Counted from the stretch's first letter, positions 4,791 through 55,900 are shown. The stretch: 64,000 nucleotides of DNA from Candidatus Omnitrophota bacterium (GCA_041650935.1 JBAZKH010000008.1:8825-72824); one strand, 5' to 3'. Notes: generated by a model not told the origin, from the letters alone. Numbers and translations: made by a program.

Positions 4791-4832
4791 CTCTACCTTA
4801 CGAACAACTAACAACGCACAACGAGCAGCGAA

Positions 4833-7732: not shown

Positions 7733-7752
7733 TACGCTATCTCCTTGCTTTC

Positions 7753-7881
7753 TTTAAATCCGAAATCCGAATATCGAAATTCTAAACAAATAAGAAATTC
7801 AAATTTTACAATTTTGAAACACTGGAGCTTGAAAAATTAGGATTTGTTTCGAATTTCGGATTTCGCGCTTCGGATTTATCC
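7753..7881. repeat. AT-rich palindromic intergenic element, family 2, copy F1
   Basis: The left half reads TTTAAATCCGAAATCCGAATATCGAAATTCTAAACAAATAAGAAATTCAAATTTTACAATTTTGAAA, and the inverted right half ends ...GATTTGTTTCGAATTTCGGATTT...CGGATTTATCC. Confidence 0.75.
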
Positions 7882-7886
7882 TTTTC

Positions 7887-9687: not shown

Positions 9688-9834
9688 GGGAACCTCCTTT
9701 TTAAATGCCAAAGCTCAAATGTCAAATAAATCTCAAATTTTCAAATATTAACTATCCAAACTGATGTTTCGAGATTTGATATTTTGATTTTGAATTTCAT
9801 TTGTCATTTGGATTTTGTCATTTGTCATTACTAT

Positions 9835-25030: not shown

Positions 25031-26101
25031 TTACCTCCCTAAAATTTTCGCGGCCGCCGCAAGCACCTCATCGACCGTTACCGCCTCGAGACACTGAAAA
25101 CCTTTCGCGCAGTCATGCGCGAGACATTCTATGCAGCCGACATCCTTATGGAGCACCACATCGCGCTTGCCTGTCGGCCCCCAGCGCTGCGGCGAAAGCC
25201 CTCTGTCGTGCCTGCCGAATATCGCGATCACAGGCGTACCGACGGCGCACGCTATATGGACCGGTCCGGAATCGTTCGATATGAATAGCCGCGCGCGCCT
25301 CAATACGCTTGCCACATCCGCAACGCTCGTCCTGCCCGCGAGGTTCAGACAATTTTTCTTTAAGCGATTCGATACTCTATCGCCCAGTTCTTTATCCGCG
25401 GCGGAGGCTACAACTATTATCTTTACGCCGTATCGCTCGATCAAGGCCTGCGCGGCCCTGGCAAACTTATCGGGGCTCCACCTCTTCGAAGGGCAGCTGG
25501 CGCCGGGGTTTATTGCCACACAAAGATCGTCTTTACCGATACCCCCCTCGCGCAGCATCTCATCCACCCTCACTTCGGAATGGCCGTTCACGGGCATATA
25601 AAGAGGCTTATCTTTCGGTTCCAGGCCTGTATACCGCAATATATCGAGGGTATAATCGATCTCGTGCTTTAAGCCGTATTGCTTGGTATGCGGCAGGCGG
25701 GTGGTGAGCAAAAACCCCCATTTCCTGTTATACCCTACCGTCTCTGGGATCCCGGCCAGTGAAACCAGAAGGTGCGTCCTCTTCGTCGGGTGCAGGATAA
25801 GGGCTATGTCGAATTTTTTACGGCGTAACGAGCGGATGAAACCCAAATTTCTCAACAGCCCCTTCTCCCGCCCGTTCTTATCGTAGACTATGATTTCATC
25901 GAGGTAAGGATTGCCTTCCAGTATATCCTTGGCATATCTCCTCACCATAAAAGCGATATAGCCATCGGGGCAGACGTCGCGGACAGCCTTGATCACGGGA
26001 GTCGAGAGCAAGACATCCCCTATCCTGTCGAGCCTCACGATCAACACCCGCTTCCCTTCATGCCTTTGGATTTTGGATTTTGGATTTTGGATTTTATTCA
26101 T
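25031..26101 (-). CDS. ADP-heptose:LPS heptosyltransferase (GT9)
   Basis: It has the GT9 N-terminus (RVLIVRLDRIGDVLL) and C-terminal motifs. An alternative GTG start at about 26047 would place the GGATTTT x4 repeat in the 5' UTR. Confidence 0.8.
   Translation of the reverse strand: MNKIQNPKSKIQRHEGKRVLIVRLDRIGDVLLSTPVIKAVRDVCPDGYIAFMVRRYAKDILEGNPYLDEIIVYDKNGREKGLLRNLGFIRSLRRKKFDIALILHPTKRTHLLVSLAGIPETVGYNRKWGFLLTTRLPHTKQYGLKHEIDYTLDILRYTGLEPKDKPLYMPVNGHSEVRVDEMLREGGIGKDDLCVAINPGASCPSKRWSPDKFARAAQALIERYGVKIIVVASAADKELGDRVSNRLKKNCLNLAGRTSVADVASVLRRARLFISNDSGPVHIACAVGTPVIAIFGRHDRGLSPQRWGPTGKRDVVLHKDVGCIECLAHDCAKGFQCLEAVTVDEVLAAAAKILGR
26068..26095. repeat. heptanucleotide tandem repeat (GGATTTT) of 4 units at the 5' end of a GT9 gene
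   Basis: The sequence ggatttt x4 encodes codons 2 to 11 (KIQNPKSKIQ) if the gene starts at ATG 26101. With a GTG start at 26047 it lies in the 5' leader. Confidence 0.8.
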
Positions 26102-29982: not shown

Positions 29983-32070
29983 CTATAGATACGGCCGCAT
30001 GGCCTCAAGTACTTCGTCGACCGTTATCCGCTTCATACATATAAAATTCTTTGCGCAGTTGGGACTGTAACACGGGCTGCATTTAAGTTCATCCTTCTTC
30101 GTTATGACCACGCAGTTCCCCGACGGCGGCGCATGCCGCGCGGGATCTGTGGGGCCGAAAAGCGCTATGCACGGAGTACCCACAGCCGCGGCTATGTGCA
30201 TCGGCGCGGAGTCCGGCGTAATATAGACCTTGAAATGCCCGATGAGGCCGGCGAGTTCCAGTATACTCGTCCGCCCTGCGGCTACGAGCGGCCGCGACTT
30301 AGCAGCCCTGGCTATGGCCCGGGCAAACTCCGCATCCTCTTCGGCTCCGGTCAGGACCGTCCGCAAATTGAACTCTTTGGCGAGCCTGTCGGATAGTTCG
30401 ACGATATTCAGGCTCGGCCAATTCTTCGTCACCCATCTGGATGACGCCCTGACATTCACTCCTACTAGCCCGGCAGACGGTGTCATCCATCCTTCCGCCA
30501 GCAGCTTATCGGCATGTTCCTTTTCCGATCCGGAGGGCCACAGCTCCAGGCGTTTATCCTGCGGCTTTATGGCTGCCATCCGCAGCGTCCTGAACTGGTG
30601 CTCGATCGGGTCGAGGTACGGCGCATCGTCCCGGAGGCGTTTGTTCAGAAGAAACGACAGTTTTTTATTGTCGTATCCGTAGCGAAGCGGCGCCAGGCTC
30701 AGTGCGGCAAGTATATGGCTGCGCTTCGAGTTCTGGAGATCGATAACGATATCAAAACAATGCTGCCGCAGTTCCCTGCCAAGGCGCCATAGTCCGGCAA
30801 TGCCGTGGTTTTTGCCGTTAAAATCGCAGACTATCCTTTCGTTTATATACGGGCACCTGTCGAGCGCCTCCTGTGATTGGACGCCGACCAGGACCTTTAT
30901 ATTGGCTTTCGGGTACCTGGCGCGTATCGCCCTGAGCGACGGCACGCTCAAAATAACGTCGCCTATAGCGCTCATCTTTATGACGAGGATATTCAGCGTC
31001 GCGACCGCCTCCTCATAGACCGCGAGCGTACGCCCCATCATCCTGTCGAGATTGAAATACGTTTCGACGCGCCGCCTCGATTCTATGGCTATATTTACCC
31101 AGAGCGTCCTCGCCCCGTAAAGCTCGGATATCTTAGCGGCTATATCTTTCGGATTTTGAGGCGCGCACAAAAGGCCCGTCTTCTTATCTTCAATGATGTC
31201 GACAACGCCGCCGACCTGCGTGGCAACCACCGGCACACCCGAGGCCTGGGCTTCTATAATAACCCTGCCGAATGCTTCCGGCGTTATTGTCGCGGATACC
31301 AGGACGTCGAGCCGGCTCATCACTTTCGGCACATCGTTGGTTGCCGGCAGAAAATCGATGACACTGGTCAACCCCAGCCTTCTTATCAAAAGCTCAAGGT
31401 CTTCTCTATATTTCTCCTTAGGCGCCGCGCCGGCTATTACAACCTTCAGATTCGGTATCTGGCGGCTCAGGATCGATATCGCTTTGATAAAATCAGCATG
31501 CCCTTTAAGCGGCGTTATCCTGGAGATCATGCCTACCGTAAAATATTCCGGCGAATGTGTCGACGGGTCCCTGAACGTAAACCTGTTCAGGTCCACGCCG
31601 CGCGGTATCAGGCGTATCCTGTCATACGGGACATTGAAATTGCTCACCATGTGCTTCGCCATTATGTTCGAAGCAACGATGACGTATTTGCCCCACCCCA
31701 TCGCCTCGCTCATCAGATGTTTCTTGTAATAGCCGTGGGCCGTCGTTATAAATGTCCTATTCGTCGACTTGCACGCGATATAGGCTATTAAAGCGGGTAC
31801 ACGCGAGCGCGCGTGGACAATGTCGATATCTTCCCTGCGGATTATTTCGCAGAGCGCTTTTATCATCCGCATCATACTAAAAACGGACTTTTTCCCGACA
31901 GGCAGATTGTAATGGCGAGCGCCTACGGCATCGAGTTCCCTCACGAGCCGGCCCCCGGCAGAGACCGTAATGGCCTTATGCCCATGCGCGACAAGGTACT
32001 TCGCGAGGTCTATAGTGCCGGTCTCGACTCCGCCGACATCCAGCGATGGAAGTATCTGCAGTATATTCAT
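29983..32070 (-). CDS. bifunctional glycosyltransferase: N-terminal GT4 fused to a C-terminal GT9 heptosyltransferase-like domain
   Basis: The first roughly 340 aa are paralogous to the neighbouring GT4 (VSATITPEAFGRVIIEAQA). The last roughly 340 aa have GT9 motifs (LNILVIKMSAIGDVILSVPS). Confidence 0.75.
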   Translation of the reverse strand: MNILQILPSLDVGGVETGTIDLAKYLVAHGHKAITVSAGGRLVRELDAVGARHYNLPVGKKSVFSMMRMIKALCEIIRREDIDIVHARSRVPALIAYIACKSTNRTFITTAHGYYKKHLMSEAMGWGKYVIVASNIMAKHMVSNFNVPYDRIRLIPRGVDLNRFTFRDPSTHSPEYFTVGMISRITPLKGHADFIKAISILSRQIPNLKVVIAGAAPKEKYREDLELLIRRLGLTSVIDFLPATNDVPKVMSRLDVLVSATITPEAFGRVIIEAQASGVPVVATQVGGVVDIIEDKKTGLLCAPQNPKDIAAKISELYGARTLWVNIAIESRRRVETYFNLDRMMGRTLAVYEEAVATLNILVIKMSAIGDVILSVPSLRAIRARYPKANIKVLVGVQSQEALDRCPYINERIVCDFNGKNHGIAGLWRLGRELRQHCFDIVIDLQNSKRSHILAALSLAPLRYGYDNKKLSFLLNKRLRDDAPYLDPIEHQFRTLRMAAIKPQDKRLELWPSGSEKEHADKLLAEGWMTPSAGLVGVNVRASSRWVTKNWPSLNIVELSDRLAKEFNLRTVLTGAEEDAEFARAIARAAKSRPLVAAGRTSILELAGLIGHFKVYITPDSAPMHIAAAVGTPCIALFGPTDPARHAPPSGNCVVITKKDELKCSPCYSPNCAKNFICMKRITVDEVLEAMRPYL

Positions 32071-32201: not shown

Positions 32202-32335
32202 AATATTATTTGGCGATGTGGCGAGCTTAGGCGTAAAAATTGCGAGGCAGCGTCCGAGCAATTTTTCTCGAGCGTAAATTTTACATGGTTAAAATTTACG
32301 CGTCCTAAGCTCACCACATCGCCAAATAATATTAG
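32202..32335. repeat. structured intergenic element with terminal inverted repeats, family 1, copy A (complete)
   Basis: It has terminal inverted repeats (GAATATTATTTGGCGATGTGGCGAGC and GCTCACCACATCGCCAAATAATATT) and two internal hairpins, AAAAATTGC[GAGGCAGCGTCCGA]GCAATTTTT and GCGTAAATTTTA[CATGGT]TAAAATTTACGC. Confidence 0.8.
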
Positions 32336-32357: not shown

Positions 32358-34301
32358 TTATATCAATTTTCGAACTGCCTCGAAAATCTTCTCCGCATCC
32401 TGCGGAAGTTTCACCGGGATCGTATCGCGCCATGCCTTTTCCAGCGCGGACGATAAACCGAATGCCTCGACGATAGTAATGTAACCCCTGTCCGACAAAC
32501 CCTTCAACGCCCGCTCATGCTTCGTCATAGAGTCTTTTTTCTTCGCAAGCTTGAAGACTACCACCTTCTTGCCGGCGCTGATCGCTTCGGAGATCATCGA
32601 GATCGATTCTTCCGAGACTACGGCAACCTTGCTGAGCGCGAGCATCCCGCTCACCGCTCCGTCAAGGTTTCGCTCGTTCGCAATGATTAGCAGTTTGCAC
32701 GCGGGATTACCCTGCAGCCTCTTCTTCAAAATATCTTCGACTGCCGGAGAGGTGCGTCTCGATGTCGTAACCAAAAGCTCTACGCCGCGAGACCCGATAA
32801 AGGATGTTAAACCATCGAGCGCCAAATTTATATTCTCTGCCGTCAGGGAAAATTCCGGGTTGCCGCCTCCTACAAACAGGCTTACCGCTTTGTCTGTCCC
32901 GATACCGGTGCTGCCCTTCAACTTTTCGCCGTCCCTTTTAAGGGACTCGTCGTCTACAAGGTTAGGCGCGAGATCAGTAGTAATAACGTTCTTTGCCTTC
33001 AAAAGATTGTCGTGTTTTGGGATGACCGCTAGATCGAATTTCCTAAGGCTCATCGGTATACCGGGCTTCATAACGACTATATTCCGCGCGCAATTCTCCT
33101 TCGACATGAATATATTCACCGGCGCAAGGCTCGACCCGCACGAGACGACAAATTCCGAATACGTCTTCATAAGCGTATCATACGTCTCTGCGGCAAGGCA
33201 TGATCTCATTATCCCCATACGGCCGTGGCACCGCCAGGTCGCGAAGACCGATGCGGCAGCAAGAAGCGCTCGGGAAAATCCGCTCTTATATTTCACATCT
33301 ACGACGACGACCCGCGTATCCGCTATCTTATACCCCTGGGTCGCCCGGGCGCGCTTTAACTGCCGCACAACAGCCATGGACTGGTTCAGGTGGCCGGCCT
33401 TGCCGTCATTAAGCACAAGTACCGTCCTGACCGGCGTCGATTTCCACCGCTTGTGGAGCCAGAGCCACTGGTCGGGATATTTCCTTATATACGCCTCAAG
33501 AAGCCGCGCGAACTTCTGGACGTTCTCCCTTACATCGCCGGGACTTTGAGTCTTCTGAAAATCTATATACTCTTCAAGGTAAAGTTTATGGTACGGCCCG
33601 CCCGTCCGCACGATGAAATTCGGCAATATCAGGGAGCCGGAGTGCTTGGCTATCTCGAAGGCTCCCGTATGATAAGACGCGGGTCTGCCGAAAAAATCTA
33701 CGAAGATACCGTTCTTGCCGGCGTCCTGGTCGGAGAGTATACCGACTATATTTTTATCACGGAGCGCCTTCAATATATTTTTGACCTCCATCCCCTTCCT
33801 TATTACCTTACAGCCGTTCGATTCCCGCAAAAGGTTCAAGAGCTCGTTCAAACGCTTCATCTTCTGCTCTCTGACAAGGACAAGGATAGGAAAACCTTCG
33901 ACGGAACTGACCAAGCTGGAGAGTTCCCAGTCGCCGAAGTGCGCGGTAAGGAGTATCGTCCCCCTGCCGGATTTGGCGGCGTTACGGATACGCTCCATAT
34001 TCATAACCTCGACATATCTGTCGACGTACCGCCGGTTGACCTTCGTAAGGTTCAGGATCTCGATGAAGGTCTGGACCATATTGCGGTAAACGTTTTTGGT
34101 AATGCGCCTCAGTTCTGCCGGAGACTTCTCTTTTGCGAATGCACTCTTCAGATTTGCGTACGCGACGACCCGCCTCGCCTTATTAAAGAAAAATACGGCA
34201 TCCCCGATGCGCCTGCCAAACCACAGCGACGCGCTGACCGGCACAAGGCCTAGTATCTTATTAAGCGCCCTTACGGCTATATAGGCTGCGTAATCTATCA
34301 A
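32358..34301 (-). CDS. fusion protein: LpxL-like lipid A acyltransferase domain plus ELM1/DUF1022 (GT-B-like) domain
   Basis: The N-terminal roughly 300 aa form a Lip_A_acyltransferase domain (HFGDWE). The C-terminal roughly 340 aa form an ELM1-family domain. It overlaps the 3' end of lpxK by about 40 nt. Confidence 0.7.
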   Translation of the reverse strand: MIDYAAYIAVRALNKILGLVPVSASLWFGRRIGDAVFFFNKARRVVAYANLKSAFAKEKSPAELRRITKNVYRNMVQTFIEILNLTKVNRRYVDRYVEVMNMERIRNAAKSGRGTILLTAHFGDWELSSLVSSVEGFPILVLVREQKMKRLNELLNLLRESNGCKVIRKGMEVKNILKALRDKNIVGILSDQDAGKNGIFVDFFGRPASYHTGAFEIAKHSGSLILPNFIVRTGGPYHKLYLEEYIDFQKTQSPGDVRENVQKFARLLEAYIRKYPDQWLWLHKRWKSTPVRTVLVLNDGKAGHLNQSMAVVRQLKRARATQGYKIADTRVVVVDVKYKSGFSRALLAAASVFATWRCHGRMGIMRSCLAAETYDTLMKTYSEFVVSCGSSLAPVNIFMSKENCARNIVVMKPGIPMSLRKFDLAVIPKHDNLLKAKNVITTDLAPNLVDDESLKRDGEKLKGSTGIGTDKAVSLFVGGGNPEFSLTAENINLALDGLTSFIGSRGVELLVTTSRRTSPAVEDILKKRLQGNPACKLLIIANERNLDGAVSGMLALSKVAVVSEESISMISEAISAGKKVVVFKLAKKKDSMTKHERALKGLSDRGYITIVEAFGLSSALEKAWRDTIPVKLPQDAEKIFEAVRKLI

Positions 34302-35307
34302 CCAGCTGCTCCTTCCCTGAAATAATATCCATTTCTATGACAAGCGTCATCACGGGATAGTCCCCAAAAGATAACGACATCCTGCGTAATTTGACTTCGT
34401 CCTTCTCGGTCGTAAGGATAAAATCGAACGATCTCTCATCGCATCTCTTCACGATAGGTCCGGTATCGGCCTGGCTGTAATTATAGTGATCGGCGAAGAC
34501 GATCTCTTCGGCGATGTCGGCGCCCAGGCGGCGGGCAGTATCGCTAAAGTAGCCCGGATCGCCTATACTCGACAAAAGAATTACGCGCTTACCCTTAAGA
34601 AAGTTTAAAGCGAGCTCCTTCCGCGCCTTCAGGTCGTAGAGACAGACGGGCTTGTGAAGCGCTTCGAGAAAGACGAGTGCGCCATTCAGTCTCTTTAACT
34701 CATCCTTCACCTGCACCAGCGCCGGACCCGGCTTATCGACTTTTGTAAAGACTATTACCGATGCGCGCTTTACGGCCTCCACAGGCTCCCTCAATATGCC
34801 CCGAGGGAAGAGCCGGCCGTTGCCGAACGGGTTGCGGGAATCGACCAGAATTATATCGAGATTGCGCTCGAGCTCCCAGTGCTGGAAACCGTCATCCAGC
34901 ACCGCGGTATCGCTGCCATAAAGCTTTATCGCCTTGTGCGCCGACTTCGTACGGTCTTCGCCGACAAGGATGGGCGTATCGGCAAGTTTGCGCCTGAGAA
35001 GAGTCTGTTCGTCCCAGCCGTAACCGCGGATAAGAACGCTCGCCTTCTTGCCAAGCTCCTCGTCGAGCAGCTTCACCAGCCGTATCACAAATGGTGTCTT
35101 GCCGGTACCGCCCAGAGTCAGGTTCCCGACGGATATTATCTTAAGCGGCACCCGGACGGATTTGAATATATGCGTCTTGTAAGCCAACCGCCGCAGTATA
35201 AGAGCAGCCCCGTACGCAAACGACAGGATGTAGAGAAAGAATTTTATAGGCGCATATATAGCGTCGTCACGCCTATCGGTCATCAATGAATATATGAATT
35301 CACGCAT
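34261..35307 (-). CDS. lpxK: tetraacyldisaccharide 4'-kinase
   Basis: It has the LpxK P-loop (ISVGNLTLGGTGKTP). The start is probably MREFIYSLM, 2 nt after the waaA stop. Confidence 0.85.
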   Translation of the reverse strand: MREFIYSLMTDRRDDAIYAPIKFFLYILSFAYGAALILRRLAYKTHIFKSVRVPLKIISVGNLTLGGTGKTPFVIRLVKLLDEELGKKASVLIRGYGWDEQTLLRRKLADTPILVGEDRTKSAHKAIKLYGSDTAVLDDGFQHWELERNLDIILVDSRNPFGNGRLFPRGILREPVEAVKRASVIVFTKVDKPGPALVQVKDELKRLNGALVFLEALHKPVCLYDLKARKELALNFLKGKRVILLSSIGDPGYFSDTARRLGADIAEEIVFADHYNYSQADTGPIVKRCDERSFDFILTTEKDEVKLRRMSLSFGDYPVMTLVIEMDIISGKEQLVDRLRSLYSRKGA

Positions 35308-36577
35308 TGAGGAATACCGCCATTTCGCCCAAGACCCGTCCCGTAGCGCCCATATTGTCGACGACAACCTGTTTGGCGGCTCTGCCCATCTCAAGGCGCC
35401 GCTTTTCATCCGTCAGCAGGTTGTAGAGGGCGGGTACCAGGTCATCACCGCTATCGACCTGCGCGGCCGCGGATGAGGCCAGAAAGGCCTCGGCTATATC
35501 CTTAAAATTGAACATATGCTGGCCGAATATTACGGGCTTCTCATGGACAGCAGGCTCTATCGGGTTCTGTCCGCCGTGTTTTATAAGGCTGCCTCCGACG
35601 AAGACTATGGTCGCTATAGAATAGAAGTCTCCCAGGCGGCCGATGGTGTCGAGAATGTAGATCCGTCGTTCGTCGTTCGTCGTTCGTCGTTCGTCGGAGC
35701 CGGATAACCGGACCGGCTGGAAGCCGAGTTTCTTTGCGGCCTCGGCGACCTCGCCCGCTCTTTCGATATGGCGGGGAGCGATCAGCAGTTTAAGCTTCGG
35801 GAAATCTTCGATTAAATCTTTATATGCAGCGATAACGGCGCATTCTTCGCCCGGATGCGTCGACCCTGCCACTATAAGCTCGTCTCCCGTAGCCATCCCC
35901 AGCTCTTTTTTTAATACGTCGCCGCTTATCCTGCCCGCCTTGACCCGGATATCGAATTTCATATTCCCGGCGACCTTTACTCTTTCGGGCCTGGCGCCAA
36001 GAGCTATTATCCTGTCCGCGTCCATCTTCGACTGCATGCAAAGAACGTTAATGTTCCGCAATATCTTCCTTAAGAACCGGCTTACCATCTCGTACTTCCC
36101 AAAAGACCTGTCCGATATCCTGCCGTTGATGAGTATGGCCGGTATGGCGCGGCGTTCTATCTCTTTTAAAAAATTAGGCCATATCTCAGTCTCGACCATG
36201 ATGTACATATTAGGCCTCACTATACCTATAACTTTCTTCACTATAAATGAAAAATCGAGCGGAAAATATATCACAACGGCATCATCCGCAAATAACTTCT
36301 TTGCCAGGTCGCCGCCCGTCTTAGTTATCGTCGAAAAAACTATCGGCCGCGAGGGGAACTTCTCGCGCATAAGCGGGATAAGGCTCCTGCATAACGCAAC
36401 CTCCCCTACGCTCACCGCCTGAATCCATATCGCGCCGCGCGCCTTCGCAAGCGCCGCGCGCTTCGCCCTGCCGTATACGCCGAACCGCTCGAGAAAATCC
36501 CTGTGCAGTTTGCCTTTGAATATCAGCGTCGGTAGATAGAAGATCGAGAATAACGCGAATCCTATGTCGTACAACAT
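35300..36577 (-). CDS. waaA: 3-deoxy-D-manno-octulosonic acid transferase
   Basis: The 425-aa protein is of the KdtA family (GT30). It contains the GTCGTTC heptamer repeat. Confidence 0.85.
   Translation of the reverse strand: MLYDIGFALFSIFYLPTLIFKGKLHRDFLERFGVYGRAKRAALAKARGAIWIQAVSVGEVALCRSLIPLMREKFPSRPIVFSTITKTGGDLAKKLFADDAVVIYFPLDFSFIVKKVIGIVRPNMYIMVETEIWPNFLKEIERRAIPAILINGRISDRSFGKYEMVSRFLRKILRNINVLCMQSKMDADRIIALGARPERVKVAGNMKFDIRVKAGRISGDVLKKELGMATGDELIVAGSTHPGEECAVIAAYKDLIEDFPKLKLLIAPRHIERAGEVAEAAKKLGFQPVRLSGSDERRTTNDERRIYILDTIGRLGDFYSIATIVFVGGSLIKHGGQNPIEPAVHEKPVIFGQHMFNFKDIAEAFLASSAAAQVDSGDDLVPALYNLLTDEKRRLEMGRAAKQVVVDNMGATGRVLGEMAVFLNA
35665..35696. repeat. heptanucleotide tandem repeat (GTCGTTC) of about 4.6 units inside the waaA coding sequence
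   Basis: The sequence is gtcgttc gtcgttc gtcgttc gtcgttc gtcg. In the reading frame it encodes DERRTTNDERR. Confidence 0.85.
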
Positions 36578-36883: not shown

Positions 36884-37555
36884 TTACTTGCTTGCTTTGA
36901 AATGTTTTTCTAGCGGTATTTCATCAAGTATTTCGGATAACAAATTCCGTTTTTTCCTATTGCAATCAAAGCAAAGCAATCGTAAGTTATCAACAGATGT
37001 CGTACCGCCTTTCGAAAATGGAATAAGATGATCAAATTCCATCTTATTGTCAGGTACGGGCTTAAAACATTTTTGACAAATCTGCCCATCTCTTCGAACC
37101 ACTTTCAACATAACATCCCTAGGAATCTCTCGTGATAGACGCCTTATTTCTTTTGTTTCTGTGAATGGTTCGGCGTTAAAATATACGGGACAAATATGTC
37201 CAAAGATTCTACAACTAATTTCTTTTAATATTCCAGAGATTTCAACAGGGTAATCACTCGTCTTAAAATCCAAAATACATTTAATAAAAAATTTCTTACG
37301 ATTTTTATCTAATTTTTTACCACCTTGAAGTCTTCCCGTAGAAATACACTCTTTTAAGTATTCATTATGCTCAATAGCCTCACTACGTATAGGAGGAATT
37401 ATAGGGAATTGTTCAACTAAAGGTCCATAAGGACAGTATTTTATTTCCCAGCACGGTTTACAAACTAGCGATTGTTTATATCTTACTATTTTAACAATCT
37501 CTGTCGAGGGTGTTTGTATGGAGAATCCCAGAACTTTTTTTAGACACTTTTCCAT
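36884..37555 (-). CDS. HNH endonuclease with a Cys-rich N-terminal region (orphan, in an AT-rich islet)
   Basis: It has a C-terminal HNH motif (DHLIPFSKGGTTSVDNLRLLCFDCNRKK). The gene is about 35% GC, against a neighbourhood well above 50%. Confidence 0.7.
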   Translation of the reverse strand: MEKCLKKVLGFSIQTPSTEIVKIVRYKQSLVCKPCWEIKYCPYGPLVEQFPIIPPIRSEAIEHNEYLKECISTGRLQGGKKLDKNRKKFFIKCILDFKTSDYPVEISGILKEISCRIFGHICPVYFNAEPFTETKEIRRLSREIPRDVMLKVVRRDGQICQKCFKPVPDNKMEFDHLIPFSKGGTTSVDNLRLLCFDCNRKKRNLLSEILDEIPLEKHFKASK

Positions 37556-37610: not shown

Positions 37611-37742
37611 AAATGTGATGTGGCGATGTGGTGAGCAGGGCGTTAAAAGTTCGAGGCAGCGTACGAGAACTTTTATCGAGCGAAATTTTCACATGGCTGA
37701 AAATTTCGCGTCCTAAGCGAGCCACATTGACACAGCACATTT
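37611..37742. repeat. structured intergenic element, family 1, copy B
   Basis: It has the same architecture as copy A, with hairpins TAAAAGTTC[GAGGCAGCGTACGA]GAACTTTTA and GCGAAATTTTCA[CATGGC]TGAAAATTTCGC, and compensatory stem changes relative to copy A. Confidence 0.8.
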
Positions 37743-41717: not shown

Positions 41718-42035
41718 TTATTTCCTCTTTATGCCGATAAGGCCGAACAGGGTCCAACTGCCTATTATTATAAGCGCCGTCAGGCTGACCGCATTCAGAA
41801 CTATGATCTTCCGCGTTATAGTCTCTTTTTCGCGCCTGAATATATCGAGTATATAATCTTCTTCCGATGAGTTTCTCAGCGCGTTACCGGACTTTATCTT
41901 CGTCATCATCATCGTCGTCGCCTTATCGTTAAGCGACATCGCTTTCCTGATGAGCGGCATACCGATAACGCCGTAATTGAATGCGAGAATAAGTACGAGC
42001 GTCGCCCCGATCCAGATTCTGGCTTTTAAAGTCAT
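41718..42035 (-). CDS. small two-TM membrane protein, hypothetical
   Basis: The ORF has two hydrophobic helices and no recognisable family. The start is uncertain. Confidence 0.4.
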   Translation of the reverse strand: MTLKARIWIGATLVLILAFNYGVIGMPLIRKAMSLNDKATTMMMTKIKSGNALRNSSEEDYILDIFRREKETITRKIIVLNAVSLTALIIIGSWTLFGLIGIKRK

Positions 42036-42111
42036 ATATAGCCTTTCCGCAATTTCAAATTTCAAATACTGCAAATACTACCAGGGAAGGTTGGGATTTG
42101 GAATTTTGAAT

Positions 42112-42624
42112 TTATTTGTCATTACACTTCGCTATCTTTATTATCTCTTCGACAGCCTGCCGCGCCGTAAGTTTGCCCGTGTCTATAGAATGATCTGCTT
42201 TTGCATATAGAGGCGCCCTTTTAGCAAGGAGCGTCCGTATCTTCAGCTTCGGATCCTCGACGTTAAGGAGCGGCCTGTGCTTATATTTCTTCGTCCGCGC
42301 CATTATCGCTTCTTCATCGGCCGTGAGGCATATAACGATACCGCCGGACTTCAAGCTCTCCATATTCTCCGGCCTTATAACCACCCCTCCGCCCGTATCG
42401 ATTACGAGGTTATCCTGGACGGAAAGATCGCGCACAACCGCGCTTTCGACATCGCGGAAATAATCTTCACCCTCTTTGGTAAATATCTCATTTATCGTCC
42501 GCCGTTCCCTCTTTTCGATAAGGTCATCGATCGAGACGTAGCGAAGCCCGAGCTCATTTGCGATCTTTATCGCGATCGTCGTCTTGCCCGTGCCCATAAA
42601 ACCGATCAGAACAATGTTACGCAT
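42112..42624 (-). CDS. aroK: shikimate kinase
   Basis: It has the motif MRNIVLIGFMGTGKTT. Confidence 0.85.
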   Translation of the reverse strand: MRNIVLIGFMGTGKTTIAIKIANELGLRYVSIDDLIEKRERRTINEIFTKEGEDYFRDVESAVVRDLSVQDNLVIDTGGGVVIRPENMESLKSGGIVICLTADEEAIMARTKKYKHRPLLNVEDPKLKIRTLLAKRAPLYAKADHSIDTGKLTARQAVEEIIKIAKCNDK

Positions 42625-43932: not shown

Positions 43933-44709
43933 TCAAAACAATCCTCCAAACAAAAGACTTATAATCTTATTTCCGAAAAATATCGAAACCAAAGCCGCCG
44001 CCGAAAGGAACGGGCCGTAAGGAATGATCTCCGCGCCTTTTCTCAATTTTAAGATTATGCCGGGCACTGCGCCCAGGAAAGGCGCAATGAAGAATGTCAA
44101 AATGACCAGCTTCAACCCTATAAAAGAACCGATCATAGCCATCAGCTTGACGTCCCCGCCGCCCATCGCCTCTTTTTTGAATGCCGCCTTTCCTATCGCT
44201 CCCATAAAGTATATACTCCCTGCCCCGGCGAGCGCACCCGCAGCCGAGCCTATTATGGCGCGGGAGCGCATCGTCTCATTGAGGATAGACGGAAAGATAA
44301 AAGCGAGTAAAAACCCCGCCGCGAGCCCGCCAAGCGATATCTCGTCGGGTATCTCCTGTATCTCGAAATCGACAAAGGTCGCGACTATCAGGCCGCAGGT
44401 CATTATAGAGTATGTAAAAAATTTCGGTGTAATACAGAACTTTAAAAAGAGCGCTGTAAGCACAAGGGCCGTCAACGCCTCGACTACCGGATACCTTAAC
44501 CGTATCCGCGCTTTACACGACCTGCATTTGCCGCCCAGCGCGGCGTAGCTAAAAACAGGGATATTGTCATACCAGGCGATGGCCTTCTTGCACTTCGGAC
44601 AATGGGACGCGGGAACGACTATGGATTCCCCTTTAGGCATCCTGTAGATGCATACGTTAAGGAAACTGCCGAGAACCAGTCCGAACAGAAAAACCGCCAT
44701 TACTGCCAT
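43933..44709 (-). CDS. prepilin (type IV leader) peptidase, A24 family
   Basis: It has an N-terminal C4 zinc site (CPKC...CRSC) and multiple TM segments with the A24 architecture. Confidence 0.8.
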   Translation of the reverse strand: MAVMAVFLFGLVLGSFLNVCIYRMPKGESIVVPASHCPKCKKAIAWYDNIPVFSYAALGGKCRSCKARIRLRYPVVEALTALVLTALFLKFCITPKFFTYSIMTCGLIVATFVDFEIQEIPDEISLGGLAAGFLLAFIFPSILNETMRSRAIIGSAAGALAGAGSIYFMGAIGKAAFKKEAMGGGDVKLMAMIGSFIGLKLVILTFFIAPFLGAVPGIILKLRKGAEIIPYGPFLSAAALVSIFFGNKIISLLFGGLF

Positions 44710-44714
44710 AGATT

Positions 44715-44807
44715 ATTAAATCCGAAATTCGAATATCGAAATTCTAAACAAATACGAAATCCTAAATTCCAATTTGGAAAATTCAGATTTCGCGATTCGG
44801 ATTTATC
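44715..44807. repeat. family 2, copy F2
   Basis: It reads TTAAATCCGAAATTCGAATATCGAAATTCTAAACAAATACGAAATCCTAAATTCCAATTTGGAAAATTCAGATTTCGCGATTCGGATTTATCC. Confidence 0.75.
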
Positions 44808-44821
44808 CTCCCTTTTCCAGT

Positions 44822-44848
44822 TTGTAGGGCAGGTTTAAACCTGCCCTA
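44822..44848. repeat. GTAG-N6-TTTAAA-N6-CTAC palindrome P2, overlapping the aroE stop codon
   Basis: The sequence GTAGGGCAGGTTTAAACCTGCCCTAC is a perfect palindrome. Confidence 0.65.
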
Positions 44849-45709
44849 CTGCTGCGCACTACTCTTTAGCGCCTCTTTCAGCGCCTTCTTCATTACGCTC
44901 ACAGGTGAGCGCGCGCCCGTCCATATCTCAAAAGCCATCGCGCCCTGGTATAAGAGCATACCCATACCTGTCACTGCGTGGAGTTTAAGCGCGGACGCCG
45001 CCCTCACAAGCTCCGTCCACGGCCTGTTATAGACGCAATCGTAAATATATAGCCCGTAATGCAGGAGCGCCGGGTCGACAGGCGATGGATCGCCCTGCTT
45101 CATCCCTATCGGCGTAGCGTTTATTAAAAGCTCGGATCCCTTTAAAGCGCTTTTGAAATCCCCGGTATGGATTACCGCGAGCCGCTTATCATCAAAGTAC
45201 TTCTTGTAGTGCTCTTTCAAATCATCCGTCTTTGCGGTATCGATATCGAAAACGGATATCCTCCTCGGTGAATTGCCCAGATACATTATAACCGCCCTGG
45301 CGGCGCCGCCCGCGCCCAGGACGAAGATATTCTTTCCTTCAGGCTCGAACTTCATGTCCTCTACAAGGGAACGGTAGAAGCCGGGTCCGTCCGTATTGTA
45401 CCCGCAGAGCAAGCCGTCCTCGGCAAATTTTATAGTGTTGACCGCGCCGAGGCGCCGCGCATTCTCATCAATGGTGCCTTTACGCTCCAGAAGCTCCTTA
45501 GCTTTTATCTTGTGCGGGATCGTAACGTTAAGGCCGGAGATATTATTGGCCCTGGCGTTCTTCAAAAAGTCATCCAGCTTTCCGGGCTCGACGTCGTATA
45601 GAAGATATTCCGCATCGATGCCAAGCGCGGAGAAAGCCGCATTTTGCATCGCGGGTGAAAGCGAATGCTTCACTGGATGGCCGATAAGTCCGTATTTAAG
45701 TCTTGCCAT
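44846..45709 (-). CDS. aroE: shikimate dehydrogenase
   Basis: It has the AroE fold motifs (GAGGAARA). Confidence 0.85.
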   Translation of the reverse strand: MARLKYGLIGHPVKHSLSPAMQNAAFSALGIDAEYLLYDVEPGKLDDFLKNARANNISGLNVTIPHKIKAKELLERKGTIDENARRLGAVNTIKFAEDGLLCGYNTDGPGFYRSLVEDMKFEPEGKNIFVLGAGGAARAVIMYLGNSPRRISVFDIDTAKTDDLKEHYKKYFDDKRLAVIHTGDFKSALKGSELLINATPIGMKQGDPSPVDPALLHYGLYIYDCVYNRPWTELVRAASALKLHAVTGMGMLLYQGAMAFEIWTGARSPVSVMKKALKEALKSSAQQ

Positions 45710-47457: not shown

Positions 47458-48450
47458 TTATTTTTCCATCCAAGGCATCATCTTCCTCAAGTCCGAGCCG
47501 ACCTTCTCGATCTGGTGAGCGCACTCTTTGTCCAGTATCGCTTTATAGTTGGGCCTGCCCGCCTCATTCTCCTTGATCCATTCGCGCGCGAACTTACCCG
47601 ACTTTATCTCTTTGAGAATCTTCTGCATCACTTTACGCGTCCTGTCGGTTATTATCTTCTTGCCGCGGGTGATATCGCCGTAACACGCGGTATTCGAAAC
47701 CCTGCATCTCATCCCGCTTATGCCGTACTGCTGGATAAGGTCCGTGATGAGTTTGAGCTCATGCAGCACCTCGAAGTACGCGATCTCCGGCTGGTAACCG
47801 GCCGCGATCAGCGTATCGAATCCCGCCTTGATAAGTTCCGACGCGCCGCCGCAGAGGACCGCCTGTTCGCCGAAAAGATCTGTCTCCGTCTCCTCGTCGA
47901 ATGTCGTCTCGATAACGCCTGCTCTCGTCCCGCCGATGCCTTTGGCATACGCAAGCGCTATATTCCGCGCGTTGCCGGTAGCATCCTGATAGACCGCTAC
48001 CAGGCACGGGACACCTTTACCTTCCTCGTACATCCTGCGCACAAGCGCGCCCGGGCCTTTTGGAGCGACCATGATGACGTCGATCTTCTTCGAAGGTTTA
48101 ATCTGTTTGAATCTTATATTGAACCCGTGCGAAAAGAGGAGCGCCTTGCCCTTCGTCATATTTTCGGCGATCTCGTCCTTGTAGACCTTCGCCTGGACAT
48201 GGTCCTCAGTCAGCACCTGGATAATATCAGCCTGCGCCGAGGCCTCTTTAGCGGAAACAGGGTTAAAGCCGTCCTTCTTCGCCTGCTCATAATTTTTCGT
48301 ACCGGGAAGTTCGCTCACGATAACACTGCACCCCGAGTCGCGTAAATTCAGGCTCTGGCTCCGGCCCTGTATGCCGTATCCGATAACGGCGATCTTTTTG
48401 CCCTTCAACAAATTCAAATCCGCATCCTTTTCATAATAGATCTTTGCCAT
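47458..48450 (-). CDS. ilvC: ketol-acid reductoisomerase
   Basis: It has the class I KARI motif (GYGIQG). Confidence 0.9.
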
Positions 48451-48475
48451 TTCTTTTAACCCCTTTCTTTGTTTT

Positions 48476-48580
48476 GACTTTAAATTCGAAACTCTAAATC
48501 CGAAATCCTAAACAAATACCAATTTTCAAAATTCGAATTTGTGATTTGTTTCGAATTTCGATATTTGAATTTCGTGCTTA
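48476..48580. repeat. family 2, copy F3
   Basis: It contains CTAAATCCGAAATCCTAAACAAATACCAATTTTCAAAATTCGAATTTGTGATTTGTTTCGAATTTCGATATTTGAATTTCG. Confidence 0.7.
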
Positions 48581-49093
48581 TTCATTTACTTCCGGTTTTC
48601 CCTCAACCTTCAGTCCTTTATCCTCCGTGCTCATCGCAACCCTGCCGGTCCTCACCACCTCCAATATCCCGAAAGGACGCAGGAGTTCGAGAAGCCCATG
48701 GATCTTTGTCTGGTCGCCTACGACCACGATACTGATCGACTTAGCCCCGGCGTTCTCTATCCCTGCCCCGGCCGATTCTATGGCCTCCAGGACCTCTTTC
48801 CTGTTCTTTGCCGTCACGGAGACCTTTAAAAGAATGAGCTCCCTGTCTATAAATTCGCCGTCCTTGAAATCGACGACCTTTATGACATCGATAAGCTTAT
48901 TGAGCTGTTTCTTTATCTGTTCGAGCGTCCGGTCGTCGCCCTCGACGACTATCGTCATCCTGGAGACGGTCGGATCCTCTGTCTCGCCGACAGCGAGCGA
49001 GCTGATATTGAATCCGCGCGCGCTGAATAGCCCGGATATACGCGCCAGGACGCCGAACTTGTTCTCGACTAAGACTGATATTGTATGCTTCAT
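48578..49093 (-). CDS. ilvN: acetolactate synthase small (regulatory) subunit
   Basis: It has an ACT domain. The start MKHTISVLVENKFGVL is preceded by GAGGG. Confidence 0.85.
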   Translation of the reverse strand: MKHTISVLVENKFGVLARISGLFSARGFNISSLAVGETEDPTVSRMTIVVEGDDRTLEQIKKQLNKLIDVIKVVDFKDGEFIDRELILLKVSVTAKNRKEVLEAIESAGAGIENAGAKSISIVVVGDQTKIHGLLELLRPFGILEVVRTGRVAMSTEDKGLKVEGKPEVNE

Positions 49094-49195
49094 ATCCCTC
49101 GCTAACTGGGTTTTAGGTCTTAGCTCATAGGTCATAGCTCATAGGCGTTGGGAAACGCGGCCCTATGACCTAAGAGCTATGAACTAAGAGCTAAC

Positions 49196-50878
49196 TTACG
49201 CCAGCCCTCCGTCCATCATCTTATTTATCGCCTGTCCCGCAGGCACCATCGGGAAGACATTCTCCTCTTCCTCAACGTGAAAATCGATAAAAACACAATT
49301 ATCAATCTTGAGCGCGCGTTCGATGGCCGGACGCACCTCTTCGGTCTTCGTGACCCTTATACCTGCCGCACCGTAGCTCTCCGCCAGCTTTACAAAGTCG
49401 GGGCATGTTCCTCCCAGGCACGTGTAAGAATAACGTTTGCCGTAGAATAACTCCTGCCACTGCCTGACCATTCCGAGATAAGAGTTATTCAGTATCGCAA
49501 CTTTGACGGGCAGTTTATTGATAACCGCCGTCGCGAGTTCCTGGATATTCATCTGTATCGAACCGTCACCTGCGATGTCGAAGACCACCGCCTTGGGCTT
49601 GCCTATCTGGGCGCCGATTGCCGCGGGGAAACCATAGCCCATCGTCCCCAACCCGCCGGATGAAAGCATCGTCCTGGGTTTAAGGAACTTGTAGAATTGC
49701 GCGGCCCACATCTGGTGCTGGCCAACTTCCGTACAGATTATCGCCTCACCCTTCGTGGCGCGCCATATCTCTTCCAGGACATACTGCGGCTTGATCTTAC
49801 CGCCGGTCTTATATTTCAGCGGATGTTTCGCCTTCCAATCCTCGACCCGCTTTATCCAATCTTTCGTATCCGGCCTCTTGACGGCTTTATTAAGACGCTT
49901 CAACACCATTTTAGCATCACCGACTATCGGGATATCGACTTCGACCGACTTCGAAACGCTGGCAGGGTCGATATCTATGTGGATGACCTTGGCATGCGGG
50001 GCAAATTCATCGACTTTACCGGTAACCCTGTCGTCGAATCTCGCGCCCACGGAAATTATCAGGTCCGACTCCATTATCGAATGGTTCGCATAGGCCGTGC
50101 CGTGCATGCCGAGCATGCCGAGTGACAATTCATGGTCCTGCGGGAAAACGCCCAGCCCAAGGAGCGTCATCGTCACCGGTATCTCGTTCTTTATCGCGAG
50201 CTCACGCACCTCTTCCGACGCGCCGGATATGACAGCGCCGCCGCCTACGTAAAGTATCGGCCGCCTCGATTCGGAGATAGCTTTCGCCGCCCGTTTTATC
50301 TGGCCCGGGTGACCCTCATAAGTGGGCTTGTACCCGCGGATATTAACGCTATCGGGGTAGATAAATTCGGTCTCCTGCATCTGGATATCGGAGGGCAGGT
50401 CTATCAATACCGGGCCCGGCCGGCCTGTGGACGCTATATGAAACGCCTCTTTTATGATCCGGGCAAGGCCCTTTATGTCTTCGATAAGATAATTATGCTT
50501 CGTTATCGGCCTGGTTATGCCGGTTATATCGGCTTCCTGGAACGCATCGTTGCCTATTAAGAACGACTTTACCTGGCCGGTTATCGCAACCATCGGGACC
50601 GAATCCATATAAGCCGTGGCAATGCCTGTGACGAGGTTAGTCGCTCCCGGTCCGGAAGTTGCCAGGCAGACGCCGACCTTACCGGTCGCTCGGGCATAAC
50701 CGTCCGCAGCATGAGCGGCGGCCTGCTCGTGACGCGTCAGTATCAGCTTTATCGGCGCGTTATAAAGCGCGTCGAAAATAGGCAGTACCTGACCGCCGGG
50801 ATAGCCGAATATGACGTCGACACCCTCTTTCCTCAAGCATTCGATCAGTATGCGCGCACCAGTCATTTTCATAGTCAA
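49196..50878 (-). CDS. ilvB: acetolactate synthase large subunit
   Basis: The 560-aa protein has thiamine-diphosphate enzyme motifs. Confidence 0.9.
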
Positions 50879-52909: not shown

Positions 52910-55900
52910 TTACGCAGCCCTTAGAAGAACTTCCTGTAAATGCTTAAGGCGGATTTGTTCGCCGGTATCGGCCGGTATGATAGGTTTGAGGATAAAGTTC
53001 AGCTTATTTATGAAGTCGACGGGGTTCTCTTTAAGCTCTCTTAATGGGATATACCTGCTTGCGCAACGCTGGGTCAAAAGACTATATAACCTGTAGAAAG
53101 ATTCGTTGTCATCGTTCAGGTAGGCCCTGCCCACCCCTATCAATCCTTCCAGATTGGTCAGGTTCCCCGCCTTAACCCTCTGACCATCAAGATTGATATA
53201 AATAACCCTGGCCTTTAATCTGTTAAGTTCTTTTATCTGGGCTTCGTTCAAACGCTCCAGGGGCAGGATCGTAACGGTGTTGTCGTCTATATTCTCACGG
53301 GCAAAAGATACAAGTTCGTCTATATTATCCTCGAAACTCACCCTGTCTTTTGTCAGCTTCGATATCTCCGTAAGGAATGGCTCCTGGCCGGGCGCGGCAT
53401 ACCCCGACCATGCTTTAATCGTGTAATCCTTTTCCGAGAGGCTCGCCTTTCCATATAGATAATCGACTATATGAAGCTTGATTGCTTCTCCGGCAAACGG
53501 GCATATCGCCGGAGGGATATTGCCCTGGCGCAATAACGGCTTATCATCTCCTTTGCCGGTCTTCAGTTTTACGCTGATCGCCACGTTAATTAAATTACGG
53601 GCATGTTCCCGCGTCTTATTATTAAGGTCTATCATCATATCGGAAAATTTATACTTTCCGTTTACATTCACAAATATACCGAGTTCCACCAAAGGCTTGA
53701 CCGCCTGATTATAAACCCTGGCCGCAAAATGTCGCTTGCCGCGGGGCTCGGTCATGCCGGGGCAGATATCGCTTTTAATGCTGAATCCTTCGCCCAGCGC
53801 CTTCTCAAGCAGCCCCCCGGGCCCGTTATCATATTTTATCATCATCAAAAACTCCGCCGGGTTACCCATTAGCCATCGGGAAACCGCGGGATCTTGAGTT
53901 GCGGAATCTTTCGCGGGATCTTGCCGGGTTATGTCATGTGGTCTTCCCGGAATCTTACCCGGCAAGGGCACGCTGCCCGGAATCTTACCCGGCAAAGGCA
54001 TGAGTTGCGGAATCTTGCCGGGTAAGGTCATGTGGTCTTCCCGGATCTTACCCGGCAAGGGCATGTCACCCGGCGCAGGCGCATCTGTGGACTTTTCACC
54101 AAAACGATCTAAGCGTATATACATTTCATCGATCAAACCCTCAGACTCTTTGATATCGACTGCGCCGGGATACATTGCCGCAAACTGCCGGTGAAATTTC
54201 TGAGCATCGCCGGTCGACGCCGGATGAGTGCGGTAATATTTCCCATCTCCGTTTTTCTTCATCTCTAAAATAGCCGCGCTCATAAGTGAATAGGCAACCC
54301 ACCGGTATTGTCTTCTTACATACATACCGTTCGACTCAAAATGATCGCCAATTAGTTTATAATCATAAAGCCCGACCGGCTCATCACCGTAATATCCGAT
54401 GACCGCAATATATTCTCCGATATCCCATTCCCGCTTTGTTTCGCTCGGCTTCTGCGCAGCCTCATGCGAAAGAGCGGCAAACCAGGCATTGCATTCTTCG
54501 ATCAACGAATCCAACCGCACGTCAGATTTTTGTTCGTCTGACAGGTTTTTATACAAGCGGAATGTTACTGATGGAAGAACCTTTTTAGAGGTATCCGAGA
54601 TTAGTCCATTCTGCTGCGCCTGCCCACCGCTCGCAAAATACGGTTCGCCGCCGGCTTGCTTGATTACAGACATCTGACGCTCATCTGCCAGCGTCTTGCC
54701 GGGTACCGGCATGAGTGTAGCTTCGGCATCCGCGGAATCTTTCGCGGAATCTTGCTGTGCGGAATCTTGCCGGGTAAGGTCATGTTGCCTTCCCGGAATC
54801 TTACCCGGCAAGGGCACGCTGCCCGGAATCTTGCCGGGTAAGGTCATGTTGTCTTCCCGGATCTTACCCGGCAAGGGCATGTTGGTATCCAGAGCGTCAC
54901 GTTTTGCGTCCCCATCTTCCTGCGGGCATTCTCCTGCAAGCGTTGCTAACCTTGCTTCAAAAGAAGATTCACTTAAGTTTTCCAATAGATAGGTCAGCTG
55001 TAAATTGTTCGGATGCCGCACAAGCTCTTTTCTGATTGCCGTTTCGACTTCGCGAGGAAATATCTTAGCGATCTCGACAAGGGCCGAATACGCACAACTG
55101 CTCGCATGATCTGGAGGATAACCTACGGCAAATATTAAATCATCTATCGCAGATCTGCCGAGAGCTATTATCTGCTTTTTCAGGCCTAATCTCTTATCTG
55201 CATCAGCATTATCCAACTTACTAAGTAGATCTTCCGTTTTCAGGGACGTGCCACTTTGGGACATTTCGCTATCCGCGTCGGCCGCACCTTCATCTAGCGC
55301 AACCTTTGTCCCATCGGATTGGACGGCACCCACTGCAGAAATCAGCTCCCATTTATACTCGTTTTTCCTTACTTCCTTAAAATCAAATGCCGCGGCAATT
55401 TTGCCGATCCATCCTCCATCCGAAGTATCTATAGCTTCCACAGATCGCAATTCCGGCAATGCTCTTAACCACGATAAAGCAGCAGCAAATAGCTTTGTGC
55501 CTACGCCCGCCTTTTGATAAGATCCCCGCACCGTCATTTCATCTATAAACCCTTCCCCCGCGTCATCTGTATGGCTTACTATCGCATATCCTATAACCTC
55601 ATTATTATTTCTCGCCACAAAAACTTTCCCCGGCCTCATCCACTTGCCATCCATTATCGACCTAAGGTAACGATTAGAAGATTCTGCGTAGGAAGGATGC
55701 ATATTACCGCCCGTAAGATAACCTTCTTCCCAAATTTTAGTAATTGCACCTATGTCGCCCGGATTTGCCGGTTCTATAATAGGCTCTGCGGGTCCTAGGG
55801 ACGGCTCTACCGGTCGCGCGCCTTGCTGTACGGCTGGGATGGCACCTTCTGGACCGTCCTTGTATTCCGCACCGCTCGCAAAATGTGGCTGGCCGCCGGC

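Follow-up and report, generated by a model that had tools for sequence, protein, structure and literature searches.

Introduction

Non-triplet microsatellites in bacterial genes are usually selected against or read as the contingency switches of pathogens. The best-known cases are the simple sequence repeat (SSR) contingency loci for lipopolysaccharide (LPS) in Haemophilus influenzae and Neisseria, where tetranucleotide or homopolymer tracts lie in lic2A, lgtC, lex2A, and lgtA. Here we describe a perfect heptanucleotide tract in waaA, the gene for 3-deoxy-D-manno-octulosonic acid (Kdo) transferase, in a stretch of 64,000 nucleotides from Candidatus Omnitrophota bacterium (GCA_041650935.1, JBAZKH010000008.1:8825-72824), the whole of which is called the window below. 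In other Omnitrophota the same codons carry tracts of different heptamers, and the waaA tract is probably an old repeat under concerted evolution.

Like the loci of H. influenzae and Neisseria, the waaA tract is a non-triplet repeat in the open reading frame (ORF) of an LPS glycosyltransferase, or in its 5' part in some of those loci, where a change of one unit shifts the frame. However, those tracts have many units, vary among strains, and occur in genomes as both ON and OFF alleles, whereas that of waaA has 4.7 units and a constant length, with no OFF allele among the sequences surveyed here. Kdo transferase is also essential in most Gram-negative bacteria, unlike the outer-core decoration enzymes encoded by the known loci, and the host belongs to an uncultured environmental phylum. 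Heptanucleotide SSRs have been described in H. influenzae with 1 to 38 units, among them (AATTTTG)14 within hmw1A, where the frame is shifted, and (AACAACC)1-13 in the gene of a TonB-dependent receptor (PMC2651432).

In most bacterial genomes heptamers are reported as the most abundant class of long SSRs, which may stem from slippage of the polymerase, and they lie mostly outside coding regions (PMC4679880, PMC4692102). The long 7-nt SSRs of Mrazek and co-workers (2007) typically have copy numbers of 2-6, with a preference near 4, and often stand as intergenic inverted pairs (PMC4679880, PMC4692102). Also known are GGGNATC repeats of Xanthomonas and Nostoc and TAACTGA repeats of Beggiatoaceae. 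The waaA tract belongs to this class, which it resembles in its low copy number, in the dominance of heptamers among the SSRs of the DNA studied, and in the intergenic inverted-pair arrays of the same window. The class is reported as mostly intergenic and under-represented in coding sequence, whereas the waaA tract is intragenic, in frame, and conserved in position while its unit changes. In cyanobacteria, heptamers of the short tandemly repeated repetitive (STRR) type are said, after Vioque in 1997, to occupy the variable P12 helix of RNase P RNA, with strains reportedly differing in heptamer. The STRR case in heterocystous cyanobacteria likewise places heptamer repeats in a permissive part of an essential gene. 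However, that is an RNA gene in which frame is irrelevant, whereas the waaA tract is viable in one length class of three. A literature search for tandem repeats or phase variation in Omnitrophota returned no paper.

A perfect heptanucleotide tract in waaA

The gene, the codons concerned, and the tract are listed here.

35300..36577, minus strand: waaA (Kdo transferase), 425 residues, frame intact (Pfam, NCBIfam, PDB, NCBI name)
35663..35698, minus strand: codons of WaaA residues 294-305 (SDERRTTNDERR), a hypervariable C-terminal-domain loop flanked by two beta strands (alignments, AlphaFold model)
35664..35696, minus strand: the heptanucleotide tract (Tandem Repeats Finder, sequence inspection, exact-run scan)

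On the coding strand the tract reads as GACGAAC in 4.7 perfect copies (CGTCGTT on the plus strand), and Tandem Repeats Finder describes an array of period 7 with 100% matches and 0 indels. It falls within the 425-residue ORF, whose translation around the tract reads ...RLSGSDERRTTNDERRIYILDTIG..., the tract itself coding for DERRTTNDERR. An earlier note on this DNA had given GTCGTTC repeated about 4.6 times at 35665-35696, which is the same array in another rotation, and had placed it in the waaA frame with the same peptide, as translation and family matches confirm. An exact-run scan of the window finds just two perfect short tandem repeats, both of period 7. Shuffled sequence contains none (0 perfect runs in 20 shuffles, periods 1 to 15), ruling out a chance origin of the tract.

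The ORF matches Pfam PF04413 (Glycos_transf_N) at E = 3.8e-60 with 202.9 bits, above the curated cut-off of 23.9. Among NCBIfam models, those for lipid IV(A) Kdo transferase match at 3e-106. An identical protein in a metagenome-assembled genome (MAG) of Candidatus Omnitrophota carries the NCBI name 3-deoxy-D-manno-octulosonic acid transferase. The best NCBIfam model, NF004388, scores 355 bits, under its equivalog cut-off of 438, and the protein is a divergent member of the family. Comparison with the PDB aligns residues 40-396 with Aquifex WaaA (2XCI) at E = 2e-31, and the AlphaFold model (predicted template modelling score 0.82, mean predicted local distance difference test (pLDDT) 86.8) has a GT-B-like alternation of strands and helices.

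The same codons carry different heptamers in relatives

Alignment of Omnitrophota WaaA proteins, in sets of 33 and of 120, places the residues encoded by the tract in a hypervariable stretch between 'RLS' and 'IYILDTIG' that is of equal length in most sequences. The loop of E. coli WaaA is of comparable length. A lineage-specific insert is ruled out, as the loop length matches that of most orthologues. The earlier note had allowed that the repeat might be a tolerated low-complexity insert; tolerance is supported by the variation described below, but the comparison reveals no extra insert and instead finds heptanucleotide tracts at the same codons in relatives.

Most orthologues display a 7-residue internal periodicity in the loop, although their peptides are unrelated (STPTPNTQHPTP, LNHGPWTMDHGP, LNEQRTANNEQR, SHITHYALHITP, and LPGPRSPVPGPR), and each periodic peptide is one heptamer read in all three frames. 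A single heptamer explains at least 7 of 12 residues in 46 of the 72 standard-length loops, whereas only 4 of 144 control windows taken from these proteins reach that level. At the DNA level the sample is small, with clear tracts in nine sequences (the window and eight loci); the metagenome scan was seeded by a single WaaA protein, was dominated by a generic pattern, and gave only ~6 close loci. In the register of the orthologues the window tract reads (ACGAACG)4.7. At the same codons and in the same register, L007 has a perfect (ACCATGG)4.4, L018 (ACGCCCG)3.3, L160 (CCAACAC)3.4, L082 (ACGAACG)3.4, and L122 (CTCACGA)n, while two loci are composite: L008 has two copies of ACGAATC followed by two of ACGAACG, and L085 two of ACGATAT followed by two of ACGATAA. 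Many aligned orthologues are without the tract or the whole loop, and no such tract was found in waaA of Acidobacteriota, Verrucomicrobiota, and other phyla from the same scans.

Microsatellites at orthologous positions with turnover of the motif are known mainly from eukaryotes. The waaA tract is like them in that the units of one species resemble each other (mean identity 0.74) more than they resemble those at the matching unit position of other species (0.59), but differs in that its unit is non-triplet and lies in the coding sequence of a bacterium. The codons GAA, CGA, ACG, AAC, and GAC are shared by the window, L008, and L082, although their proteins are only 57-59% identical. Identical codons for a shared peptide at such divergence indicate that the DNA repeat is conserved rather than the peptide. 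Together, these comparisons suggest an old tract under concerted evolution across a large Omnitrophota clade.

The block patterns of L008 and L085, of the form AABB, are what duplication of neighbouring units yields. Because in-frame events of three units homogenise only at a period of 21 nt, perfect 7-nt periodicity would require either single-unit events, with frameshifted intermediates, or length-neutral misaligned copying. We infer that slippage is the mechanism behind the turnover of units.

The tract lies in a permissive loop

Within the AlphaFold model, pLDDT falls below 50 only at residues 295-297 and 299-301, which belong to the tract-coded loop between strands 287-290 and 305-308. 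The loop of Aquifex WaaA (2XCI) falls 8 residues short of that of the window; among the orthologues it is missing from some and differs by 7 residues in either direction in a few. Larger changes also occur in frame. L006 carries a 33-nt GC-rich palindromic insertion within the tract (~10880-10920 of that locus), and L019 has a much longer inverted-repeat element in the loop (~1300-1500) that encodes ...HCEEPKATKQSQKRDCFAPSGLAMTE... and resembles a small mobile palindromic element. The waaA genes of strains P0026 and P0131 (L161/L162 vs. L163/L164) are 98% identical, with 9 of their 26 differences inside 15 nt of the loop. This patch (waaA positions 885-899) encodes TERTT in one and AKTPA in the other; it is not a change of unit and looks like a multi-nucleotide event rather than independent substitutions. 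The loop is predicted to be disordered and at the surface, and it tolerates change in both length and sequence.

Slippage in this loop would have different consequences according to the number of units. Gain or loss of one or two units in silico gives products of 318-347 residues that lose the C-terminal ~120 residues, including D310, G328-S330, G335-N338, and E341, all invariant across the 120 orthologues, whereas a change of three units in either direction keeps the frame. In silico translation therefore bears out the earlier claim that gaining or losing one unit frameshifts waaA and, as such changes truncate the enzyme, the tract is mechanically able to switch the gene off. The RNA of the tract folds no better than shuffled controls (z = +0.40) and a search revealed no inverted partner, which speaks against the tract being one arm of a hairpin like those of the intergenic heptamer arrays.

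A second tract in a heptosyltransferase gene

The other perfect repeat of the window lies in the same gene cluster.

25031..26101, minus strand: GT9 heptosyltransferase II-like gene (Pfam; NCBI name)
26065..26095, minus strand: second perfect tract, (AAAATCC)4.4 as read on the coding strand, within codons 1-12 (exact-run scan)

This gene begins with an ATG that shares bases with the stop codon of the GT9 gene upstream (TATGAATAA), and the tract encodes an N-terminal extension, MNKIQNPKSKIQRHEGK. The closest relative, L003, has the same ATG and an extension of the same length, with no start codon at the position of the GTG/TTG candidates of the window, which indicates that the extension is translated. 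Across 78 orthologues the extensions fall into discrete lengths, mainly 3, 8, and 15 residues, where the step from 8 to 15 is 7 residues or three units. Their peptides are species-specific and heptamer-encoded (MNKVRGQRSEVRGQK, MGKVSGFRVQGSGFR, MSKAKSEKLKAKSYK, MNRNRKPQTENRKPK, and others). The phenomenon seen in waaA thus recurs at a second LPS-core gene, there at the 5' end.

Copy number and alleles

No frameshifted allele was found among 29 close-clade Omnitrophota DNA loci with a locatable loop, nor among 29 sequences (27 WaaA) of ten clusters at 90% identity. Loops are identical inside each of the seven clusters that clearly bear a tract, and no change of copy number was seen among relatives. 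Variation of units between strains is accordingly not supported by the protein clusters, whose only divergent pair (P0026 and P0131) shows no unit change. Sampling through proteins is biased toward intact genes.

A different view is given by the Logan assembly of run SRR8542065, an independent assembly of the same population, which uses k=31, has all 31-mers distinct by construction, and drops k-mers seen once (PMC12424806). Four of its contigs are 100% identical to the window: L171 (40572-37705), L165 (35693-32278), L172 (31578-26066), and L173 (26094-22864). L165 starts with four copies of CGAACGA followed by CGG, and matches 31 of the 33 nt of the waaA tract and 3.4 kb downstream base for base. 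At the second tract, L172 ends in ...AAAATCCAA and L173 starts with AAATCCAAAATCC..., so that the contigs break on both sides of 26065-26095. Simulation of the 31-mer graph yields no branch from the window alleles alone. Adding a second allele longer by one unit or more reproduces exactly the three boundaries of L165, L172, and L173, while alleles with one or two fewer units give other boundaries. Tracts alone do not break contigs, as the perfect 31-nt tract of another species (P0043/L007) is intact in Logan.

This agreement between the observed boundaries and the longer-allele simulation indicates that SRR8542065 contains reads with a longer perfect run of each heptamer. Such reads may represent copy-number variants of the two loci, in frame or not, or an identical run at another locus or in another species. 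Stutter in the polymerase chain reaction is a less likely source, as only signatures of expansion are seen.

The ends of two of these contigs also coincide with another repeat. A two-copy intergenic motif, ATGTGG..GCTTAGGACGCG.AAATTTT.A.CCATGT, lies at 32291-32310 and 37699-37718 on the minus strand, flanking the HNH-waaA-lpxK-lpxL block. L165 and L171 end at its copies, which suggests further copies elsewhere in the genome.

Heptamers beyond waaA

A preference for heptamers extends past the two genes. Among the perfect repeats with 3 copies or more in 552 kb of Omnitrophota sequence, 10 have period 7, against 2 for periods 5, 6, and 8-11 combined. These are low-copy tandem 7-nt units and heptamers are the dominant SSR class, although both tracts of the window lie inside ORFs rather than in the intergenic positions typical of the class. 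One of the ten lies in a housekeeping gene. In a distant Omnitrophota-like MAG, L070 carries (CAGGGGT)4.4 at 3285-3315 inside a topoisomerase I gene with a ThiS-like N-terminal fusion, where the tract amounts to an insertion of 7 residues relative to the TopA of the window and of L160.

An enrichment specific to LPS genes was considered and rejected. The LPS cluster makes up ~28% of the window and both tracts would land there by chance with a probability of ~0.08, a rough estimate; the topA tract also speaks against specificity. Nor are heptamers an Omnitrophota speciality, as Acidobacteriota loci are equally rich in arrays. In the Acidobacteriota/Vicinamibacterales loci L042, L052, L055, L057, L066, L077, L079, and L080 there are many intergenic heptamer arrays, often as inverted pairs, such as CCAATCC / GGGATTG in L079, and an array in L057 reaches 10.6 copies.

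The window itself has imperfect intergenic arrays of the AAATCCG type, often in inverted pairs just upstream of genes. Two inverted imperfect arrays each are found at 7735-7890, 9700-9840, 42030-42125, 44700-44850, 48450-48590, and 49100-49200. Their types are AAATCCG / CGGATTT, AAATTCG, and TAGGTCA / TGACCTA. Each element sits directly 5' of a ribosome-binding site and would fold into a long hairpin, and together they resemble a dispersed family. A single-arm intergenic array at 4800-4837, between a stop codon and the start of the next gene, has ~5 imperfect TTCGTTG-like units on the coding strand; a single mismatch separates this unit from the complement of that in waaA, probably by coincidence.

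Gene neighbourhood

The waaA gene lies within an LPS cluster (kdsD, kdsA, kdsB, three GT9 genes, GT4 genes, lpxL, and lpxK) and heads a block that is entirely on the minus strand. It is followed by lpxK, which served as the anchor for finding independent assemblies.

34261..35307, minus strand: lpxK, 348 residues as called by NCBI/Logan, overlapping the end of waaA by 8 nt

Beyond lpxK come an lpxL-ELM1-like fusion, a GT4-GT9 fusion, a GT4 gene, a polysaccharide deacetylase gene, and three GT9 heptosyltransferase-like genes, and farther along a PfkB-family sugar kinase gene, then kdsB, kdsA, and kdsD. Both fusions are kept in the relative L160. The first (32358-34301, minus strand) joins a lipid A acyltransferase to an ELM1-like (PF06258) domain, and the second (29983-32070, minus strand) a GT4 to a GT9 heptosyltransferase. 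Between xerC and waaA, an ORF of 223 residues with an HNH-endonuclease domain (36884-37555, minus strand) takes the place of a serpin gene in the syntenic L160, and from this comparison the slot looks like a variable insertion point. At the far end, a giant ORF of >3694 residues (52910-63994, minus strand) runs off the window and contains many DNA repeats of 30-35 nt and 64 nt (CGGAATCTTGCCGGGTAAGG...). Pfam assigns it only GNAT and NUDIX domains.

Origin and role of the tract

The explanation we put forward, with confidence about evenly divided for and against, is that the tract is an old, slippage-active heptanucleotide microsatellite in a permissive WaaA loop, whose units are evened out by recurring slippage or misalignment while purifying selection preserves the frame, OFF variants being by-products. 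The ancestor of the clade would already have carried a tract of ~5 units at these codons, probably ACGAACG-like. Recurrent gain and loss of units, or misaligned copying during replication, would keep the tract repetitive, and a base change in one unit would spread to the others until each lineage had its own unit. Purifying selection on WaaA would remove the out-of-frame lengths, leaving assembled genomes with five units in frame and rarely two or eight. Single-unit slips would have to arise and would give a truncated, inactive enzyme. These OFF slips would be by-products of a genome-wide 7-nt slippage bias instead of a selected ON/OFF switch, and we infer that the tract is not an adaptive switch.

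Several observations weigh against this explanation. The sole two perfect SSRs of the window are both in LPS-core glycosyltransferase genes, and that of the GT9 gene lies at the 5' end, the classic architecture of a contingency locus. The waaA tract persists across 40-45% protein divergence, which is long for a neutral repeat of five units. Turnover of units by the single-unit route would mean that cells survive OFF states at least for a time. The k=31 Logan contigs, moreover, break as predicted for longer alleles of both tracts.

The same observations favour a true contingency system, in which second-order selection maintains reversible ON/OFF switching of the LPS core through the waaA and heptosyltransferase tracts. 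Subpopulations with truncated LPS may then, for example, escape phage or attach differently to hosts or prey. The mechanics agree with such a role, as the 7-nt unit of the 4.7-copy waaA tract is not a multiple of three and a change of one or two units abolishes the product in silico. In the GT9 gene, the tract separates the catalytic domain from a conserved ATG that is translationally coupled, and orthologues of the gene vary in steps of 7 residues (three units), each with its own unit. Both tracts have stayed perfect over deep time, which requires single-unit events, and the boundaries of L165, L172, and L173 fit longer alleles at both tracts, not shorter ones or those of the window only, while Logan assembled the perfect tract of P0043/L007 whole. 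However, no OFF allele was found beside the ON alleles in the data surveyed (29 DNA loci and 29 cluster sequences), loops are identical within tract-bearing clusters, and loop length is near-invariant at five units across species. The tract has just 4.7 units, its gene is normally essential, and a comparable tract is found in the housekeeping gene topA. The extra Logan 31-mers could stem from an in-frame variant with three more units, another locus, or another species, and heptamers are the usual long SSRs of bacteria (PMC4679880, PMC4692102). We consider a contingency role the main rival, though less likely than not, and give the same modest probability to the reading that both LPS-core genes are genuine contingency loci whose tracts were kept slippage-competent by selection across the clade while their units turned over. 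The earlier note had proposed a candidate phase-variation switch; its frameshift logic, the LPS-core setting, and the mutable tract hold, whereas the OFF alleles and the range of copy numbers among relatives did not appear. The tract may serve as a phase switch, but it is not filed as a contingency locus because OFF alleles, one of the defining population features, were not found in the sequences surveyed.

A role of the nucleic acid independent of its sequence, such as slowing transcription or translation at the junction of the two C-terminal-domain halves or binding a heptamer-recognising protein of the cold-shock type, would account for a tract conserved in position, phase, and length but not in sequence. 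Binding of CspB to heptamer repeats has been mentioned (PMC4679880), and intergenic heptamer arrays stand just upstream of many genes of the window. We regard this as improbable given that the RNA does not fold beyond shuffled controls, the tract has no inverted partner, many orthologues lack tract or loop, and the units range from AT-rich to GC-rich. Selection on the repeated peptide (ERRTTND)n, for instance as a charged membrane-facing or regulatory loop, is more improbable still. Peptides of the form NERR...NDERR do recur in several distant orthologues, but others are unrelated (PTPNTQHPTP, HGPWTMDHGP, PGPRSPVPGPR), and a separate heptamer read in three frames accounts for each. With codon choice identical where the peptide is shared, and a loop of pLDDT <50 that can be lost or interrupted, a repeat maintained at the protein level is rejected. 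Chance or faulty assembly as the source of the tract has a negligible probability, as no such run appears in shuffles, L165 matches the window through 31 of 33 tract nucleotides, and the orthologue tracts come from many samples.

Implications

The microsatellite reading makes the waaA tract a clean natural example of concerted evolution in a frame-constrained repeat, in which one length class in three is viable. What sets it apart within the known class of bacterial heptamer SSRs is the combination of an intragenic location, constraint by the frame, and a conserved position with turnover of the unit. Heptamer tracts of this kind also explain contig breaks in assemblies with small k, and could pass for frameshifts or pseudogenes in the annotation of MAGs. 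For the biology of the ultra-small Omnitrophota, the two tracts raise the testable possibility that these bacteria vary their LPS core by slippage at two genes. If true, this would place phase-variable LPS, including an ON/OFF Kdo transferase, outside the host-adapted pathogens and in an uncultured, non-pathogenic phylum.

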